Below are positions 23,426 to 31,705 of a DNA stretch of 64,000 bases, piece by piece. Source of the DNA: Kiritimatiellia bacterium (GTDB lineage Bacteria > Verrucomicrobiota > Kiritimatiellia > RFP12 > UBA1067). Positions within the stretch are counted from its first letter, which is position 1; the number at the start of each line of letters is the position of its first letter. A model generated the notes under the pieces. That model ran no database searches. It had not been told where the DNA came from and saw only the letters and a program-made list of their open reading frames with translations. The DNA is taken from contig JAFXTB010000178.1 in assembly GCA_017525225.1 (NCBI GenBank), positions 9,660 through 73,659 of the forward strand. The letters run 5' to 3'. The position numbers and the translations under genes were made by a program.

Positions 23426-24169
23426 TCATGCCTTGTGGAGAAACGCCTGGTACCTCTCGCACACTCCGGCCACGTCGGAGGTGAACTCCATCTGCTTACC
23501 ATGGTTCAGCCACAATATCTTGTTACACAGCTTCTGCACCTGAACAAGCGAGTGGGAAACCAGTATCGTCGCTACGCCGCTGTGTATGATTTCAAGGAGT
23601 TTCTCCTCGCTCTTCTTGCGGAACTCGACGTCACCCACCGAGAGCACCTCGTCCAGAATAAGAATGTCCGGCCGCACCATGGACGCCACCGAAAACGCCA
23701 AGCGGGCTCTCATCCCCGACGAAAGCTGTCGGAATGGACGGCCCTCAAATTCGCGCAGCCCCGAGAAGTCGATTATCTTATCGTATGCGTCATTCATGAA
23801 CTTCCGCGTATAGCCAAGCATTGCCCCGCGCAGATATGCGTTCTCTTTGACCGTCAAGTCCTTGTCGAATCCAGAGGTCAACTCCAACAGCGCCGCAATC
23901 CTTCCATGCACACGTACCGATCCCTCCACCGGCTCCAAGATACCCGAGACCGCCTTGAGCAGCGTGGACTTCCCTGCCCCATTGGCGCCAATAATTCCGA
24001 GCATGTCACCCCTGTTCAATGCGAACGTGATGCCGCGATCTGCCCAGAACTCCTTCGCGCGATATGTACCTGTCAACTTTCGGATGACGAACTCCTTAAG
24101 GCCAATGCCCTTGAAATCCCCTACCATGTAGCGGATTCCGACACCCTTGAGTTCTACGAGCGTATTCAT
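23426..24169 (-). CDS. Polysaccharide-export ABC transporter ATP-binding protein (Wzt/KpsT/TagH family)
   Basis: Walker A GANGAGKST, signature LSSGMRARL, Walker B ILILDEVLSVGD. Adjacent to an ABC-2 permease. Confidence 0.85.
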   Translation of the reverse strand: MNTLVELKGVGIRYMVGDFKGIGLKEFVIRKLTGTYRAKEFWADRGITFALNRGDMLGIIGANGAGKSTLLKAVSGILEPVEGSVRVHGRIAALLELTSGFDKDLTVKENAYLRGAMLGYTRKFMNDAYDKIIDFSGLREFEGRPFRQLSSGMRARLAFSVASMVRPDILILDEVLSVGDVEFRKKSEEKLLEIIHSGVATILVSHSLVQVQKLCNKILWLNHGKQMEFTSDVAGVCERYQAFLHKA

Positions 24170-24172
24170 TTC

Positions 24173-24994
24173 TTAGACGTAATATAGGAATTTGGTATTG
24201 AACTTCTTGTACATAACACTTCCGACAAAGAGGAAAAACAGCGCCCACCCCGCAAGGATGGCATGGTGTCCCAAAGATGGAAATGCTCCGTCAATTGTGA
24301 CCTTGCGGAAGTATGCAATAAACATGTAGATCGGATTGCACATATACACTCTCTTCCAGCTCTCGGGAAATTTCTCTATGGAATACATCACCGCAGAGCC
24401 ATAGAAGAGAAGCCGGGTGAAGACACTCCAAAGGTAGGCCATGTCGCGAAAAAACACGTATAGTGCCGAAAGGACTAGTCCCAACCCAAGATTGAAAAGC
24501 ATAAGAACTACTATCGGATACAAAAGGAGAAGGAAATGCCATCCGAACCGGATTCCGTCAATCGCGCAGAAGCCAAAGAAGACAGCTAGGATGATCAGGA
24601 AGTTCAAAGTCGTTTGCGCCGTTTTCGCGAAAAGGAAAAGGTACTTGGGCACGTTGACCTTGGTGAATATGCTGGCATTCTCCATCAACGACACCATCCC
24701 CCCGCCCACTGCCTCGTTAAAGTACAGGAAGACCACTTGCCCGCAGAAGAGGTAGATGGTATAGTGGGGAATGGACTTGCCGAAGAATTGTCCAAAAACG
24801 AGTTTGAGCACAAGCAGCAAGAGTAGCGGCGAAAGCACGCTCCATCCCATGCCCAGAACCGTACGCTTGTATTTCTTCTTGAAATCGCGCTTGACCAGTT
24901 CCTCGAACAGGAAACGATGCGCCAAAAACACCCTGACCGCGCGGCGGACAGGTGTCTCATTCAACGGAAGGACTTGTCTCCCAAATACTTTCAT
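24173..24994 (-). CDS. Polysaccharide-export ABC-2 permease (Wzm/KpsM/TagG family)
   Basis: 273 aa with six TM helices. ABC-2 family pattern (VKRDFKKKYKRTVLGMGWSVLSPLL). Lower GC (about 48-50%). Confidence 0.75.
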   Translation of the reverse strand: MKVFGRQVLPLNETPVRRAVRVFLAHRFLFEELVKRDFKKKYKRTVLGMGWSVLSPLLLLLVLKLVFGQFFGKSIPHYTIYLFCGQVVFLYFNEAVGGGMVSLMENASIFTKVNVPKYLFLFAKTAQTTLNFLIILAVFFGFCAIDGIRFGWHFLLLLYPIVVLMLFNLGLGLVLSALYVFFRDMAYLWSVFTRLLFYGSAVMYSIEKFPESWKRVYMCNPIYMFIAYFRKVTIDGAFPSLGHHAILAGWALFFLFVGSVMYKKFNTKFLYYV

Positions 24995-25189
24995 TCTACA
25001 TCCAACAACTATTCCCTCAGCGCTTACTAGTATACACCATCCTTGAGGGTATAGTCAAGCCTGTGGCGTCCGCCGTACCCATTCAGAACAGGACATCGCG
25101 GATGTCGATCACCGCGTTGAAGCCCCCCTCCGCCTCGACAATGGGCGCAAGGTGCCCGCTGCAGACGAGCGCCGTCTTCACGACCTTCC

Positions 25190-25262
25190 CCCTTCCCAAG
25201 TGGGATGCGTACGCGCCTGACCTTCTCGACGTTGTAAACAGGAATTATGACGGAGACTTTCG
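25190..25262 (-). pseudogene. Degenerate stub of a GT2 glycosyltransferase gene (only the first ~16 codons recognisable)
   Basis: Minus-strand translation MSKVSVIIPVYNVEKV is the canonical GT2 N-terminus. After that the frame runs into GC-rich non-GT sequence (RRVRIPLGKGEGREDG...) and stops. No continuation was found in other frames. Confidence 0.45.
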
Positions 25263-25271
25263 ACATGGATG

Positions 25272-26111
25272 TCACACCCCGAAATTCGTGAACTTGATCT
25301 GTCGAACAAGAGCCTTGAAATAATCCCGACTCCATATCTTGAGTTCGGAGATATTCTCGATGAACGGCTCCACGTCTTCGCGCGCGGAATTGAAGTCGAT
25401 CGAGTCAATGCGCGCATCAAACGCGGCGACGACGGCCTCCGGGGTGCTTAGATCCACACCTGGCCCGCTTTCCTTCCCACGTTCCACGAGATGCGTCAAG
25501 TCCAGTTCGGCACCTCGCGAGACATACCAGGCCATGTCATACCAGTCACGGCCCTTCACACGGTTCTTCCACTTCCGGAACAACGCCGCGCTTGCCTTGC
25601 CCGCATAAAGACCGGGAAGGTCGTAGATTCTCACCCAGCACGACGACGGACGGACCAGCAGCTTCATCTCCGTATTGAACCTCGGAGGAGGATCAATATC
25701 CACCTCCAATTTCACCTTGGGGCGCTTCTCCGTCGTGAATCCGATGTCATACACGTCGGACGATTCCTTGAGGAATGCGCTCTCGATTGAATTCGGGCGC
25801 CCCTTTCGCTTCGACTTGATCTCAACTTCCCTGCCGGCAAGCCGGAACTCGTCCTTTACCGCTTCAAAGTAGTCCTCAAATGCAAACGATGGATCCGGGG
25901 CTAGAAGCGAAAAATACATATCCTCGGAGAACCTCTCCAATCCATGAAAAAGATGGAGGCATGTTCCGCCATAGAAAGCGGCCTTGGAGAAGAATCCTCC
26001 GCGGGCCAATCCCGCCAACGCAACCTCCTGCATCACCTCGTAGACGGCATTTTCCTTCTCGTTCACGGACTTGACCTTGTACGCCTCAACCATTTCATCG
26101 AACAATGTCAC
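25272..26111 (-). CDS. Nucleotidyltransferase AbiEii/AbiGii-family toxin-like protein
   Basis: 279 aa. N-terminal region (YEVMQEVALAGLARGGFFSKAAFYGGTCLHLFHGLERFSEDMYF) fits the AbiEii/DUF1814 nucleotidyltransferase fold pattern (GGT...D-x-D-like). ATGA overlap with the upstream small gene. AT-richer than flanks. Confidence 0.65.
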   Translation of the reverse strand: MTLFDEMVEAYKVKSVNEKENAVYEVMQEVALAGLARGGFFSKAAFYGGTCLHLFHGLERFSEDMYFSLLAPDPSFAFEDYFEAVKDEFRLAGREVEIKSKRKGRPNSIESAFLKESSDVYDIGFTTEKRPKVKLEVDIDPPPRFNTEMKLLVRPSSCWVRIYDLPGLYAGKASAALFRKWKNRVKGRDWYDMAWYVSRGAELDLTHLVERGKESGPGVDLSTPEAVVAAFDARIDSIDFNSAREDVEPFIENISELKIWSRDYFKALVRQIKFTNFGV

Positions 26112-26578
26112 GTGAATATCCTTTCCAACGCCTTGAACAGGCCGTACTTGCGTCCTGAAGCCGCATAGGCGGAGAAAACGCCTATGTCGGGATTTTCAAA
26201 TGCATCAAAATCAAATCGCACATCATTCTCCAGATACATGCGCAGCGAACGCGGCGACGAGATGCGAAGCCGAGACCGTGAATCGATAAAGTCGCACAAT
26301 GCCTTCTCCGGTCCCGCGACCATCGCTCCATCAACGCTTCTGACGCCGATGGCAAAGGTCGCCACAGGCACTGTACGGTATACAAAGCGTCCAACAGGCG
26401 TGACGAACCGCTTTCCCCGTGCTGTCACCGCCGAAATCGTTTCCACTACGCGGTCTGGTATCAGACCATATTCCGCCAACATCGTCTCGAAAGAAACATA
26501 TGAGACGGACCGTAAAGCAGATTGGCGACCGTTCAGGCGCGGCCCATGTGTCGAACCCTTTTCAGGGACTGTCCCCAA
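26108..26578 (-). CDS. Putative cognate antitoxin/autoregulator of the AbiEii-like gene (AbiEi-like or DUF6088-like; short form)
   Basis: Positional partner overlapping the toxin start by 4 nt. 124-156 aa depending on start: TTG 26578, or ATG 26482 (MLAEYGLIPDRVVETISAV...). The reading frame opens only at 26623, so no longer N-terminal wHTH domain is possible here. Homology is not verified. Confidence 0.4.
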   Translation of the reverse strand: MGTVPEKGSTHGPRLNGRQSALRSVSYVSFETMLAEYGLIPDRVVETISAVTARGKRFVTPVGRFVYRTVPVATFAIGVRSVDGAMVAGPEKALCDFIDSRSRLRISSPRSLRMYLENDVRFDFDAFENPDIGVFSAYAASGRKYGLFKALERIFT

Positions 26579-26588
26579 GTTATTCCAG

Positions 26589-26663
26589 TTTAGTTGACCC
26601 GTAAGTCCGTATTCTGCGCCACTTTAGGGTCAACTAAATCCTATTTTGCAATTTAGTTGACCC
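26589..26663 (-). promoter_or_regulatory. Triple 12-mer operator-like array TTTAGTTGACCC (26589-26600, direct), GGGTCAACTAAA (26627-26638, inverted; embedded in palindrome TTTAGGGTCAACTAAA) and TTTAGTTGACCC (26652-26663)
   Basis: Exact 12/12 matches read directly from the sequence, 10-85 nt upstream of the antitoxin-like gene start on the minus strand. Confidence 0.5.
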
Positions 26664-26776
26664 ATAACCACAAGGATATGCTGCATGGCGATCTGATCTG
26701 TAGGAACCGTCAATCAAGGGGCAGCCGCCTTTCGCCGCTCAGATCATTGAGCCAATCAACCACCCGGTTTATGATG

Positions 26777-29700
26777 TTATTGGATGAATAAAGCGGCGCC
26801 GTTAGGAGCGATCACCCCTTCCTGAATATCGTACCAATCATCGTCTTCTTCATCGTAATAGCTTCCAGACGGCGTGTATAGGAACTGCAAATCAACCGCC
26901 ATCCCGCCAACAACGAAAGTCGCCAGTGCGCATTTGTCATGGACAAAGCGAACCACGGTCGTCGCACTCACCTTTTTCGAGCCAATCTTGCCCGCCAGTG
27001 TCGCAATACCAGTATCGGAAACTTTAATTGACACAGGGAACGATGTCATGCCATAGACACAATATCTGCAGAAAAGACTGTAATCGCCATTTTCCCTAGC
27101 TACCGCCAATTTCTGCGTCCCCAGCTTGCTCAGCAATTTGGCGATGTGTCCGGCACTTGCATTCAGGTATTTCTTCTTGCTGTTCTTGCCGTATGGATTC
27201 CGCACGGCGTACGCCCAGACGATGTCGGTGCACAACCCAGACGACGGCTCTGGCTGGTAAGAGCCTTCAAGAGCCGCCTCGGTGGCGTCCCACGCCAAGG
27301 ATGGTTTGATCGATATCTTCAGCTTCTTCTTCCAGCTGACAAGAGTGGCACTGTAGACACCATCGTCGTCTATGGAAGACCACTTGCTAGCGGCAAATGT
27401 AGTTGATCCAAGCTTGGCCGAAATCTTGCCGTCGCTCTTGACAACCACCTTGAAGACATGCACTTTATCCGTTATGGCAGTGTAGCGGCGTCCAACATCC
27501 TGATTGTCTCCCTCTTCCGAATCGTCATAACCGCAATCCTCACAGTCATCGTCGTCATAATCGTCATCATCGTCATCGTCAGCATCCCATGGCGTAAATC
27601 CATAATACCCTGATGTATACCCGTAACTATGTGCGGCAATCCATGAACTGTCCTTCGAGGCGAAACCGTTAAACGTTCCGACCACCGCCGAAGGCAGGGC
27701 AACGGCCTTGATCTTGATCTTGAAGGTCCTCGACCATCCCCATTTGTTCGTAAGTTTTATCGCCACGGTGCTCGTACCCGCCTTGCGCGGCACCCCGCTG
27801 ATCTTTCCGCTCTTGTAGGCAAGTCCGCTCGGAAGACCGCTCACCTTGACCGTCGCGGACGAACCGGACACGCCGGACATGCCGGGCGTCGCGGTGAGCG
27901 CGAAAGTCTGCTGTACGCCCACGCGCACGGTCACCGTTGCGCCGGACGACGTCACTGTCGTGGCGTTTTCCGCCGACGTGCCGTTTACGCGCGCCGACAC
28001 GGACACGGTGAATCCGGGATTCTTCGCCACGATCTTGATCGTCTTCTTGGCTGTCCCCTTGGAGTTCTTCGCCGTGATCGTCACCTTGGACGTCCCGGGC
28101 TTCTTCGCCTTGCCGGTTATCTTCCCGCCCGAATACTTGAGCCCGGACGGAAGCCCCTTCACCGTTACGGTCGTCTTCTTGATGGTCGACAGCACTGTGA
28201 TCGGAATGCTGCAGGACTGCCCCGGAATCACTGTATAGGAACTATCGCAGTAGATGGCCGGCTTGGGCTTGGGGGCAGGCAGCGTGCCCGCTAGCTCGGC
28301 AGCCACGCGAAAGCCTAGGTTCTCGTAGGTGTCGGACGGGTATACGGTATCCGAGCCGTCCCAGTACCAATATTTCTTGTCATAGCTCTCGCTCCATGAC
28401 GCACCGCACATCATTTTCGATTCGTCTGCGCTGGAATTCGGCCCGACAGGATCCGTGACCGCCTTCGTGACGTTCCATTCCCAATCCAGAGTCCATTCCG
28501 ACACATTTCCATACATGTCGTAGATTCCCCAGGCGTTCGGCGCGTAGGATCCGACCTTCGTATGTTCGCCGTACCCGCCCTTTCCGTCATTCGCGTTTTC
28601 AGGGATTCGTCCGCACGACGTCACGTTAACGGTGCTCCCGCCGCCTGCGCGGAAGGCATACTCGCCCTGCGCCAGCGTGGGCAGGTCCACCGAAACGCCC
28701 GACCGGGCGCGGAGACGTCCGATGAACGAATTCGCATCGACAGTCCTCACCGCCGGCCAGTTGTATGTCCGCACATTGCCGCGAATGGATTCCCACGAAA
28801 CGCGCTCCACTGGGCGCGTATCTCCCCTGTAGCGCGACGGATTCTGCCCCGTCACCAGTTCGTACTGCTTCTGCGTCACCTCGAATACGCCGATGTAGTA
28901 CGGCTTCGTGATCGAGACCTTGTACGAGCCGATGACGGTCGGCACCTCGTTACCATAATCATCCATATCCCAATCTACATCATCCATCATGAAACTGCCC
29001 GCCTCCACCTTCTTCAGCACCAGTTTGGTCGTCTTGTATTCATCCGTCCAGCCGCCGGCGGGAATGGCATCAAGATATGTAACCGGGTATTTCGACGCGC
29101 TCGCGCCTGTCGAGAGATCGATCACGCAATACGTACCAGATGTGGGAGTTGTCGGTGTCGTGCTGGCGTTCCAGTGGGCGTAGTACGTCACGTTACCGGT
29201 AACCTTCGTGGACGTCGATATCTTCGTACCGCCGCTCGCAGCGGTCCACCACCCGTCAAACGTGTACCCGCTCCGCGTCGGCGTCGGCAGCGTCCCGACC
29301 GCCGAACCGCTGGCGACAGACCGCGTCGTGCCGCCGCATCCCCCGTTCGCGTTGAACGTCACCGTGTAATAATCTCCACTACCAGCCAATGTCACGCCGC
29401 TCGCCGGATCGCCAACAAGCTTGAATGCCGAGGAATCAAAGGATGCATACGAACCTTCTGCAACAGAGAACTCCAATCCGGCTTCGCCCAATCCATTCAC
29501 ATGAAGCAATCTAATACTGTAAATCCCAGCAGACGGAAAGCTTACGGTCATCAAATCTGTACTCATTGCTCCACTGGAAGAAGAATGGAATTCACGAGAA
29601 ACTCCAGTGCCACTAATTGTTGCAGAAAATACATCGTCACATCCACAGGCAAAAGTCCATTCTCCGGCCCGTGGAACATATATTGATGTTGTCGCATCCA

Positions 29701-31705
29701 CAACGAAATAATTACTGCCCCCTCCTGGGAAATCCACCATGTCACTTGAGAATTTTATATCTCTGTAATGTCCCAAGCCATAGGCAAATGCAATCTTATC
29801 ATAAGTTTTCGTCACTGGTTCCCCATTCCAGACGGAATGATCGCCAATTGCTTGTAACGCATAAGAATCTGTTTCCTGTAAGCTTTCACCAAGAATATTT
29901 TCCGTGAGATTGTACTGTGTCACCATCCAAAGCCCATTCGCTGGCGGCGTCGTCCCCGCCGTGCCGTCGTACAACGCCTTAACCTCCGCTGCCGACAACG
30001 CACGGTTGTAGATGCGGAGGTCATCTATACTTCCATCAAAACACCCATATTGTGTCTTACCGAGGGAATAATCACCATTTGAGTCAACACTAAGCATAAT
30101 GCATTTGGTTCGCGAACTACTGAGGCCTTCCCTCACAAACACCCCGTCAAGATAGAGTTTGGGCGCACCATTCTCGGAAACGGAAACGACCGCATGATGC
30201 CAACTAGCATCGATTGCCGTCTCATACTTCAAGACTGCCGCCTTGTAACCGCCTCCATGCTCATAAATGTTCAATCCATTTGACCCAGCCTTCAACCCTA
30301 CACCAACATATCCTGAAAGATAAATGTTCGGCTGAGCCGGATAAACCAAAAAGTTCTTGCCATTATAATCAGTCCCACTCGTCGTTTCGCCTTTCAGTAC
30401 AGTAGTTTCGAATGTCTTAAACCAGCATGAAAAAGTAAAAGTGTCCTTGACTAACAGCAGCTCTGATGTCCCGAGCGCAATGTTATTGTCCAACTGATAT
30501 GCGCCGTTTTCCAGCCCATCATGTCCCACTACACAAGTGAGAGTGCCCTCCACCACCAAATGATACCCGTTCCCGCTCGCATCGTTCGCGTTGCCATCAA
30601 ACGGATAGTACGCAACAAGGCCATCGGTCAATGATCTGCCAGCAGGTGCCGCCCCATACTCATAGCATCCGATATCGACCGTACCGTTGGCGATACGGGC
30701 GTTGCCCGCCAAGTCCTTGTCGCTCGTCACATACGAATTGTCGCCCGCATCGATACACGGCGAACCCGCCGTAAGCCGATAGTCACCGTTCGCCGCATCC
30801 ACGAAGTTGGGAGTTGCACTGATATTGCCAGCCCCAACATTCAATGTCGCAACATTCTTTTTTGTCACGCCACCTTGTACACAGCTATATGAGACTGCGG
30901 CCATCGTACCAGAGCTGTACACACTTGAGAATGCATCTATCTGGCTACCTCCATTGTTCCAGACGATGCAGCCCTTCACTTTAACAGTCGCGCCATTGGC
31001 CAATCCAACACCGCCTTGATACCCAAAGAAATCCGTGGAGTCATTGCCATAGATGGTACAGTTGACCAAAGTCATCTCGCCGTCATCACTCTCGACAAAG
31101 ATCGCTCCACCGCAAGCCCACGCAAAGTTATCGTAAAACAGACAGTTTTCCACAAGTACACTTCCTGAAGCACTTGAAATACCACCTCCAAAAGTGCCTG
31201 AATCTGTACGTGGCGTGCCATGCCCGTTTCCATGTATTATGCAGTTGCGGATTGTGGCGCTTGTACGACAGCGCACGCCGCCGCCATAATAGTCATACCC
31301 GTATGAGGAAGGATTCGGCTCTCCAGTGCCGCCCGTAATCTCAAAACCGTCAATGGTCGCCCCGGTCGCATTCTCCATTATCCTTACAGCAGCATATCCT
31401 GACAGTCCATGTACAGTTGTGTTTTTTGCCCCTGAAGCCGACTTGACTTCAACCCTCCTTGAGATTTCAATCCTTTCATTATACGTCCCTGGTGCAACAA
31501 GAATCGTGTCGCCTGCCGACGAAGCATCAATCGCCGCCTGGATCGTCGCCTTGGCGGAAGATTGGCTCGTGCCGGAGTTGTAGTTCGACCCCGTCGAGCC
31601 GTTTACATACCACGTAGTCGCAGATACCATCATCGGCATCAGCAGCACAGCCACGGTCAACTTTTTCAGCATCAACTGGAATACTTTTGAAAATTCTGTT
31701 TTCAT
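26777..31705 (-). CDS. Giant secreted multi-domain surface protein (1,642 aa): signal peptide; pectin-lyase-like beta-helix; LamG/ConA-like; Listeria-Bacteroides repeat; FGE-sulfatase (SUMF1-like) domain; two Ig-like (dystroglycan-type) domains; poly-Asp linker; C-terminal domain
   Basis: Parallel beta-helix repeats NCIIHGN / NCLFYDN / NCTIYGN. LamG-like LVAYYPFDGNANDASGNGYHL. List-Bact repeat SGYTFDGWWTAASGGTKIST. FGE-like VDLPTLAQGEYAFRAGG and GIYDMYGNVSEWTLDW. Ig-like GLPSGLKYSGGKITGKAKKPGTSKVTITAKN, twice. Linker DADDDDDDDYDDDDCEDCGYDD. Confidence 0.8.
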   Translation of the reverse strand: MKTEFSKVFQLMLKKLTVAVLLMPMMVSATTWYVNGSTGSNYNSGTSQSSAKATIQAAIDASSAGDTILVAPGTYNERIEISRRVEVKSASGAKNTTVHGLSGYAAVRIMENATGATIDGFEITGGTGEPNPSSYGYDYYGGGVRCRTSATIRNCIIHGNGHGTPRTDSGTFGGGISSASGSVLVENCLFYDNFAWACGGAIFVESDDGEMTLVNCTIYGNDSTDFFGYQGGVGLANGATVKVKGCIVWNNGGSQIDAFSSVYSSGTMAAVSYSCVQGGVTKKNVATLNVGAGNISATPNFVDAANGDYRLTAGSPCIDAGDNSYVTSDKDLAGNARIANGTVDIGCYEYGAAPAGRSLTDGLVAYYPFDGNANDASGNGYHLVVEGTLTCVVGHDGLENGAYQLDNNIALGTSELLLVKDTFTFSCWFKTFETTVLKGETTSGTDYNGKNFLVYPAQPNIYLSGYVGVGLKAGSNGLNIYEHGGGYKAAVLKYETAIDASWHHAVVSVSENGAPKLYLDGVFVREGLSSSRTKCIMLSVDSNGDYSLGKTQYGCFDGSIDDLRIYNRALSAAEVKALYDGTAGTTPPANGLWMVTQYNLTENILGESLQETDSYALQAIGDHSVWNGEPVTKTYDKIAFAYGLGHYRDIKFSSDMVDFPGGGSNYFVVDATTSIYVPRAGEWTFACGCDDVFSATISGTGVSREFHSSSSGAMSTDLMTVSFPSAGIYSIRLLHVNGLGEAGLEFSVAEGSYASFDSSAFKLVGDPASGVTLAGSGDYYTVTFNANGGCGGTTRSVASGSAVGTLPTPTRSGYTFDGWWTAASGGTKISTSTKVTGNVTYYAHWNASTTPTTPTSGTYCVIDLSTGASASKYPVTYLDAIPAGGWTDEYKTTKLVLKKVEAGSFMMDDVDWDMDDYGNEVPTVIGSYKVSITKPYYIGVFEVTQKQYELVTGQNPSRYRGDTRPVERVSWESIRGNVRTYNWPAVRTVDANSFIGRLRARSGVSVDLPTLAQGEYAFRAGGGSTVNVTSCGRIPENANDGKGGYGEHTKVGSYAPNAWGIYDMYGNVSEWTLDWEWNVTKAVTDPVGPNSSADESKMMCGASWSESYDKKYWYWDGSDTVYPSDTYENLGFRVAAELAGTLPAPKPKPAIYCDSSYTVIPGQSCSIPITVLSTIKKTTVTVKGLPSGLKYSGGKITGKAKKPGTSKVTITAKNSKGTAKKTIKIVAKNPGFTVSVSARVNGTSAENATTVTSSGATVTVRVGVQQTFALTATPGMSGVSGSSATVKVSGLPSGLAYKSGKISGVPRKAGTSTVAIKLTNKWGWSRTFKIKIKAVALPSAVVGTFNGFASKDSSWIAAHSYGYTSGYYGFTPWDADDDDDDDYDDDDCEDCGYDDSEEGDNQDVGRRYTAITDKVHVFKVVVKSDGKISAKLGSTTFAASKWSSIDDDGVYSATLVSWKKKLKISIKPSLAWDATEAALEGSYQPEPSSGLCTDIVWAYAVRNPYGKNSKKKYLNASAGHIAKLLSKLGTQKLAVARENGDYSLFCRYCVYGMTSFPVSIKVSDTGIATLAGKIGSKKVSATTVVRFVHDKCALATFVVGGMAVDLQFLYTPSGSYYDEEDDDWYDIQEGVIAPNGAALFIQ

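Follow-up and report, generated by a model that had tools for sequence, protein, structure and literature searches.

Three sites of a probable four-site operator array of a PDC-S27-type ATPase gene beside a truncated abiE fragment in a Kiritimatiellia bacterium

The stretch of DNA analysed here, referred to as the window, comprises 64,000 nucleotides of a Kiritimatiellia bacterium contig (JAFXTB010000178.1, positions 9,660 to 73,659 of the forward strand; assembly GCA_017525225.1). Near position 26,600 it contains three copies of a 12-mer, TTTAGTTGACCC, next to a gene that resembles the antitoxin gene abiEi and is followed by the toxin gene abiEii. An annotation made from the letters alone, below called the sequence-only reading, took the repeats for the autoregulatory operator of the abiEi-like gene. 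We describe the repeats, the ATPase genes that they normally precede in other loci, and the mosaic locus in which they lie beside abiE.

Repeats and abiE genes in the window

Exact copies of the 12-mer are located at 26589-26600 (plus strand), 26627-26638 (minus strand) and 26652-26663 (plus strand), and the window contains no further exact copy. The direct-inverted-direct arrangement reported from the sequence is therefore confirmed, and the gaps of 26 and 13 nt are also correct. The repeats are real and highly non-random: with up to two mismatches, the 12-mer occurs eight times in 64 kb against a shuffle mean of 1.72, and none of 100 shuffles reaches eight. Similarity extends beyond the 12 nt: a direct 22-mer is repeated at 86% identity, and the inverted arms measure 18 nt (89% identity, 14-nt loop) and 13 nt (100%, 11-nt loop). 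Two details of the sequence-only reading have to be amended. The element TTTAGGGTCAACTAAA, described as a palindrome, is complementary only in the outer 5 nt of each side (TTTAG/CTAAA), and the spacings of 2.5 and 1.2 helical turns were taken from the gaps. Measured from centre to centre, the distances are 38 and 25 bp, and the sites of the same orientation lie 63 bp, or 6.0 helical turns, apart. Four more metagenome contigs from the same organism are 100% identical across the region.

The abiEi open reading frame (ORF) matches the PADLOC AbiEi profile with E = 6.6e-33, but covers only positions 55-186 of 192; it has no Pfam match. Its full-length relatives have 207 aa, the closest being P0002 with 83% identity. 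DNA homology to the full-length P0002 loci (L001, L002 and L004 among the fetched loci, which are numbered with the prefix L) starts at about 26530, and upstream of this breakpoint there is no similarity. The gene in the window lacks the first ~67 codons, which encode the winged helix-turn-helix (wHTH), and what is left encodes the C-terminal antitoxicity domain alone. Relative to full-length abiEi, a 2-bp insertion at 26502-26501 shifts the frame and leaves the remnant open as far upstream as a TTG at 26578. The toxin gene appears intact, and the antitoxin gene that precedes it has no recognisable promoter; no promoter-like site is found on the gene (minus) strand between 26579 and 26776. The 12-mers themselves sit where the missing abiEi coding sequence would be, in DNA that is unrelated to abiE loci. 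No match to the 12-mer with three or fewer mismatches is present near the full-length abiEi gene of L001, and the regions upstream of the gene in L001, L002 and L004 are unrelated.

The array and its ATPase gene in other loci

Twenty-four other loci of the rumen Kiritimatiellae type contain the same exact 12-mers. Among 185,579 species genomes, a scan for a site followed after 10-40 nt by an inverted site returns two other loci, one in a Kiritimatiellae metagenome-assembled genome (MAG) from yak rumen (L129) and one in a MAG labelled 'uncultured Verrucomicrobia' (L130). A metagenome scan for an inverted site and a site separated by 8-20 nt adds 21 more, and in all 21 the gap is exactly 13 nt. 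The standard array consists of four sites starting at +0, +25, +63 and +88. They form two inverted pairs, GGGTCAACTAAA-N13-TTTAGTTGACCC, with 26 nt between the pairs, which are set 63 bp apart. Each site reaches outward to about 19 nt (TTTAGTTGACCCnAAAGTC), and the 13-nt centres are A-tracts when read toward the promoter. Three of these sites, with exactly the standard gaps, are found in the window; the fourth is missing, and its expected place at 26575-26564 is occupied by GGGACAGTCCCT.

Conservation is concentrated in the sites. Among 11 non-redundant arrays, mean pairwise identity is 96-100% for the sites, 53-57% for the 13-nt spacers (consensus nnGAAAAAnnnnA), 57% for the middle 26-nt segment (consensus nAAAGTc...gA.TT..) and 28-37% for the flanks. 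These figures are biased by a motif search that required one exact pair per locus, though the other pair is nearly always exact as well. Two loci reached through the protein rather than the motif (L159 and L160) both have the array; that of L159 is exact, and that of L160 has the standard geometry with one or two mismatches in three of its four sites. Outside the arrays, the fetched loci contain only chance-level matches with two mismatches. Some arrays depart from the standard: the inverted pairs of L131 (1413-1534) and L146 (856-978) are 85-86 nt apart instead of 63 nt, and L142, L150, L136 and L140 have a single inverted pair. A blastn search of 26535-26776 against plasmids and phages gives no match, and a single-site scan of viral contigs gives only singleton matches, judged consistent with chance for a 15-base pattern.

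A conserved TTGCnT lies 9 nt past site 4 and is followed 17-18 nt further by a TATCAT/TATAAT-like hexamer, together a sigma-70-type promoter with TTGCnT as its -35 element. After the -10 hexamer come a GGAGG ribosome-binding site and the ATG of a 476-aa protein that starts MF(V/I)GR(Q/K)EQL. A sigma-54 promoter was also considered for the conserved TTGC and rejected by eye, as the upstream sequence does not fit a GG at -24 and the -10 hexamer stands at 17-18 nt. The sequence-only reading had suggested that the TTGAC within each site might double as a -35 element. Intact loci use the separate TTGCnT instead, and this idea is not borne out.

The 476-aa protein belongs to Pfam ATPase_2 (PF01637) and matches the PADLOC candidate defence gene PDC-S27 with E = 6e-70 to 5e-75. 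PDC-S27 is a 'phage defence candidate' in which ATPase_2 is fused to a PD-(D/E)xK nuclease (PMC12988326); it is abundant in archaea and rumen genomes and is a candidate that has not been validated experimentally (PMC12988326, PMC13356809). The protein has more than 7,500 homologues. Weak matches to HTH_5, HTH_20 and TrmB (ArsR/TrmB-type helix-turn-helix) are found at residues 253-300. In the AlphaFold model (pLDDT 90.9), an AAA+ domain is followed by a segment at residues ~262-316 and then by a C-terminal alpha/beta domain. The segment has a helix-helix-helix-strand-strand order and is read as a winged helix in the model. A fold search identifies the ATPase_2 protein 2qen, STAND/NLR proteins and Orc1/Cdc6, including the DNA-bound 2qby, as the best matches in the Protein Data Bank (PDB); a sequence search of the ATPase against the PDB finds none.

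Array, promoter and ATPase gene recur as a unit in six or more distinct gene neighbourhoods; nucleotide identity is 70-78%, with homology beginning at site 1. No other gene is consistently linked to the array. Most array loci with examined flanks have the ATPase gene or its remnant next to the array, and none of those other than the window carries abiE. The three 12-mers of the window are thus very probably sites 1-3 of the four-site operator array of a PDC-S27-type ATPase gene, and not an element of abiE. Of the claim of an operator, the part that stands is a multi-site operator next to a defence-type gene, with conserved sites and variable spacers; the assigned owner and a current function do not stand. 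A search for the 12-mer elsewhere, proposed in the sequence-only reading as a check, goes against that reading by its own standard: the motif normally precedes an ATPase gene and is unrelated to the abiE module.

Mosaic structure of the window locus

The features of the locus are listed in Table 1, with the minus strand being the promoter-oriented strand of the ancestral unit. The upstream segment is homologous to L132 and its homology ends where site 4 should start. In the array stretch, the window and L132 differ at 0 of 36 positions within the sites versus 16 of 51 outside them (Fisher p = 1e-4). Past this point the window has no TTGCnT -35, -10 hexamer, ribosome-binding site or ATPase ATG; the filler and the abiE patch are there instead. 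Neither L132, the abiE loci nor any other fetched locus is homologous to the filler. The patch contains abiEi from codon ~68, the complete abiEii gene and codons 1-15 of a family-2 glycosyltransferase gene, in agreement with the gene order abiEi, abiEii, Glycos_transf_2 in L001, a capsule-type locus whose arrangement is seen in L001-L003.

Beyond the patch, the end of an ATPase gene is probably preserved. The remnant at 25208-25089 matches the family profile at positions 439-474 of 475 with E = 1.5e-4, and no other of the 1347 six-frame segments of the window does so. Like the intact protein, it ends at a stop codon, and both its strand and its position are as predicted. The simplest reading of these alignments is that an abiE fragment cut at both ends, together with the 47-nt filler, took the place of site 4, the promoter and codons 1 to ~435 of the ATPase gene. 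On this reading, the array is older than the arrival of abiE and unrelated to it. With neither promoter nor cognate gene in cis, the window array is most likely a non-functional relic, and at most it would be a decoy site for a paralogous ATPase encoded elsewhere.

Table 1. Features of the locus around the array, in window positions
Feature	Position	Strand	Basis
1642-aa surface-type protein	26777-31705	-	Beta_helix, Laminin_G_3, Flg_new and FGE-sulfatase domains
Segment homologous to L132 (68-nt leader, sites 1-3, most of second 13-nt spacer)	26578..26731	-	blastn against L132 3246-3398, 91.6% over 154 nt
Array site 1, GGGTCAACTAAA on - strand	26652..26663	-	Exact 12-mer; aligns with site 1 of L132 and of standard arrays
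13-nt A-rich spacer within inverted pair 1, TTGCAAAATAGGA	26639..26651	-	13-nt length invariant in all arrays
Array site 2, TTTAGTTGACCC on - strand, then conserved extension TAAAGT	26627..26638	-	Exact 12-mer and array alignment
26-nt segment between inverted pairs	26601..26626	-	Sites 2 and 3 extend outward into its ends, TAAAGT...GACTTAC
Array site 3, GGGTCAACTAAA on - strand, last surviving site	26589..26600	-	Exact 12-mer and array alignment
Junction filler, 47 nt	26531..26577	-	Holds perfect palindrome GGGACAGTCCC (26575-26565) and, with 26578, the TTG (26578-26576) opening the 156-aa ORF
abiE/capsule-locus patch, 1.31 kb	25222..26530	-	blastn against L001 1170-2476, 80% over 1310 nt
5'-truncated abiEi ORF	26108..26578	-	156 aa from TTG, or 124 aa from ATG 26482 as gene callers pick (P0001)
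abiEii toxin gene, 279 aa, apparently intact	25272..26111	-	Pfam AbiEii 2.9e-26; PADLOC AbiEii 5.7e-100, full length
Glycosyltransferase gene start fragment (MSKVSVIIPVYNVEK)	25222..25266	-	Translation and alignment with start of L001 GT2 gene
Probable remnant of PDC-S27-type ATPase gene (last ~40 codons and stop)	25086..25208	-	tblastn with L132 ATPase residues 436-475, 43% identity, E = 4e-4

All genes adjoining the array are on the minus strand. The abiE module and the ATPase unit are repeatedly observed in or beside loci for capsule or polysaccharide synthesis and export (window 23426-24994; the neighbourhoods of L001 and L159), where the genes include ABC2_membrane/ABC_tran, glycosyltransferases and Capsule_synth. 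In L159 (7562-10221), two AAA-ATPase_like/PDDEXK_9 genes follow a few kb downstream of an intact unit, past glycosyltransferase genes, and represent another ATPase-nuclease family in the same polysaccharide-locus neighbourhood. Such loci may be landing sites for defence genes in these rumen bacteria. The missing 5' fragment of abiEi, which would mark an insertion scar if present elsewhere in the window, was also looked for; only spurious antisense matches at 16.9 kb and 43.7 kb were found.

Loss of the ATPase beside a kept array is seen in other loci too. A comparison of L139/L141 with L134/L129 reveals clean loss of the ATPase ORF with the array retained, and in L136, judged against L149, an internal deletion has spared 16 nt and 55 nt at the two ends of the gene. 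L130 (6700-7030) contains only a C-terminal ATPase fragment and three sites. Several lineages have lost the ORF by independent deletions but keep the array and, in some cases, the promoter. This pattern suggests that the candidate defence gene is often lost.

The predicted binder, alternatives and known systems

More distant ATPases, at 64-65% identity, retain the geometry of the array with other site cores. Common to these ~64% relatives are an inner CTAA(A/T)-N13-(A/T)TTAG and a -35 element just past the last site; where two pairs are present, the distance between them is 62-63 bp, and the outer AAAGT is retained in L152 and L156 too. The pair is AACTTTTCTTCTAAT-13-ATTAGAAGAAAAGTT in L156 (core TTTTCTTCTAAT in L156-L158) and GACTAAA-13-ATTAGCGG in L154 (core CCGACTAAA). 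L152 has 25-nt arms of the same type as L156-L158 around a 13-nt gap, and a further ATPase_2 paralog on this contig, of unquantified identity, has GGTTCACCTAAT-13-ATAGGTGAACC in both of its pairs. L152 (1300-1500 and 4190-4360) in fact encodes three tandem ATPase_2 genes, two of them with four-site arrays that are identical in geometry, one of the TTCTCCTAAT type and one of the GGTTCACCTAAT type; the middle, shorter paralog is accompanied by a different short palindrome, TTGTATAGTACAA. A single contig with two paralogs therefore carries a different array for each. The start of the predicted recognition helix also varies with the site class, being GKLSK with GGGTCAACTAAA, GSYAR with TTCTTCTAAT and GNYTR with CCGACTAAA. 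Because the site sequences and the start of the recognition helix differ together, the array is most likely the ATPase's own operator, and on balance we favour the ATPase itself as the predicted binder.

In intact loci the ATPase would bind its own array through the winged helix, with one protomer per site. The six-turn phasing over 63 bp and the A-tracts would favour a cooperative, DNA-bending assembly. With the last site abutting the -35 element, occupancy could set the transcription of the ATPase gene itself. Repression is thought likelier than activation, though the upstream position leaves room for the latter.

The explanation as a whole, combining an array of the ATPase unit, the ATPase as its predicted binder and a mosaic relic in the window, appears probable to us. 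Several observations weigh against it. The 47-nt filler has no match in either parent or in the fetched loci, and the ATPase remnant is short (about 40 aa), with E around 1e-4. The binder is proposed from linkage and co-variation, and all sites are upstream of the -35 element, which is unusual for a simple repressor. Arrays persist where the ATPase is deleted (L139/L141, L136, L135/L138 and L144), perhaps because relics are simply common, perhaps because the array serves a purpose of its own. Finally, the three window sites are still perfect, which is compatible with either a recent event or continued selection, for instance through binding of a paralog in trans; the five available copies of the locus, being identical, do not distinguish between the two.

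The main competing possibility is that the array is an operator of the ATPase promoter bound by another factor acting in trans, be it a regulator of the host, of anti-defence or of a defence island. An activator-like position upstream of the -35 element, the survival of arrays after loss of the ATPase and the intact sites of a window that has no ATPase in cis are all in line with such a factor. However, the site sequence follows the ATPase clade even for paralogs on one contig, so that a separate co-evolving regulator would be needed for each paralog, and no second gene is consistently linked to the unit. The ATPase also has a predicted winged helix of its own, whose recognition helix starts differently with each site class, and we consider a separate regulator unlikely. 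Operation of the array as nucleic-acid structure, be it an RNA hairpin, a terminator or attenuator with alternative 1:2 and 2:3 pairing, cruciforms or a REPIN-like element, is very improbable, even though the direct-inverted-direct order allows two mutually exclusive hairpins, RNA folding gives a 14-bp stem (z = -2.8 on the minus strand and -2.2 on the plus strand) and the arms co-vary between clades. Neither hairpin is followed by a U-run or T-run on the minus strand, no terminator-like site occurs in 26000-27200, and an Rfam search gives only a chance match (E = 0.99). The array is upstream of the ATPase promoter and, in L146 and L150, between divergent genes, so it need not be transcribed. 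All four sites share one sequence, which indicates conservation of the sequence and not merely of pairing, and the two double-variant arrays (L144 and L151) are non-compensatory. The array is not a high-copy element either: one array in 64 kb and two matching loci in the 185,579 species genomes speak against a dispersed repeat of the REP, REPIN or MITE kind, on the sequence available for this organism. The most likely mode of action is thus sequence-specific protein binding on DNA, as judged from these patterns.

The array might instead be the end of a mobile element or a recombination site, with the truncated genes nearby as insertion scars. Rearrangement breakpoints do coincide with or adjoin the arrays of the window, of L130 and of the ATPase-deleted loci, and the unit occurs in many different neighbourhoods. 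Yet the array has no transposase or integrase gene linked to it, the far end of the unit carries neither a second array nor a terminal repeat, and the site orders of the window and L130 are opposite when read inward from the truncated gene. The N-terminal part of abiEi is absent from the rest of the window, and the distance from array to promoter and ATG is fixed. A mobile-element origin has accordingly very little to recommend it. Least credible of all is the original proposal that the three sites form an autoregulatory operator of the adjacent AbiEi, overlapping its promoter. The sites are directly 5' of the abiEi-like ORF, and characterised AbiEi proteins repress their own promoters through inverted repeats (PMC7319586). 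The idea looked attractive because the geometry matches the promoter of the mycobacterial AbiEi-family protein Rv2827c, if the sites are taken as 23 bp (12 + 11, with 26 = 11 + 4 + 11). Pairs of ~23-bp inverted repeats with short fixed gaps are indeed present, with 13-nt gaps as in Prv2827c, but this geometry is not diagnostic alone. In characterised AbiEi, it is the N-terminal wHTH that binds DNA (PMC7319586), and the truncated protein of the window, which has no such domain, would be unable to bind the array. Added to this are an abiE patch cut at both ends, orthologous full-length abiEi loci without the motif, array loci with the ATPase gene or its remnant in place of abiE, and the missing promoter on the gene strand; the operator cannot be attributed to AbiEi on this evidence.

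As for known systems, the Rv2827c promoter of Mycobacterium tuberculosis, where Rv2827c is an AbiEi-family protein, carries its four 23-bp repeats as two pairs, with 13 bp separating the members of a pair and 4 bp separating the pairs (PMC7319586). This operator and PabiE of Streptococcus agalactiae are, like the array, multi-site operators that consist of inverted repeats and adjoin a defence or toxin-antitoxin gene, and both are bound by monomeric winged-helix proteins (PMC7319586). They overlap the -35/-10 elements and the transcription start of abiEi and are bound by the N-terminal domain of AbiEi (PMC7319586), whereas the array ends 9 nt upstream of the ATPase -35 element and has no abiE gene beside it in the other loci with examined flanks. 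The shared geometry is a resemblance and not evidence of homology.

A different parallel is provided by archaeal Orc1/Cdc6 (2qby), in which, as in the ATPase model, a winged helix comes after an AAA+ module (Foldseek E about 5e-8). Both the origin boxes of Orc1/Cdc6 and the array comprise inverted repeated elements around A/T-rich DNA, beside the gene of the protein itself. The ATPase differs in having an extra C-terminal region, and the A/T-rich centres of the array are only 13 nt long. Unlike origin boxes, the array keeps a constant spacing to a sigma-70 promoter, a feature suggestive of control of transcription; nothing points to a role in replication. BrxR/CapW-type WYL regulators are reportedly autoregulated winged-helix proteins of defence systems that act on inverted-repeat operators before phage-defence genes. 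Those regulators are separate small proteins, whereas here the presumed binder is the effector-like ATPase itself, acting on four long sites.

A bolder possibility, and in our judgement a quite doubtful one, is that PDC-S27-type ATPases, with their AAA+, winged-helix and nuclease parts, bind DNA sequence-specifically and assemble in the manner of Orc1/Cdc6, each on a paralog-specific four-site array next to its gene. In that case the array would belong to the defence mechanism itself rather than being a simple autoregulatory operator. It could serve as a self-marker, or as a place of nucleation or parking where the nuclease stays inactive on self DNA until infection, and orphan arrays such as that of the window would persist since paralogs still use them.

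PDC-S27 is defined by its protein only; the gene that normally follows the array matches its profile, and the window probably keeps ~40 C-terminal codons of such a gene. The open-access literature text searched describes no cis array for genes of PDC-S27 or ATPase_2, and the papers found for PF01637 contain nothing on regulation. What is new here is a family-wide, paralog-specific four-site array before PDC-S27-type ATPase genes, together with the mosaic history of the locus. For the window, a plausible but wrong annotation is removed: abiE is a doubly truncated fragment within another defence gene, and the repeats are the leftover control region of that gene. Repeated deletion or replacement of the ATPase beside the array (window, L130, L136 and L139/L141) points to rapid turnover of these loci. 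In rumen bacteria and archaea, PDC-S27 ranks with the more abundant candidate defence genes (PMC12988326, PMC13356809), and its paralog-specific array offers a cheap experimental handle, as it predicts the bound DNA, the specificity residues and the control of the gene.

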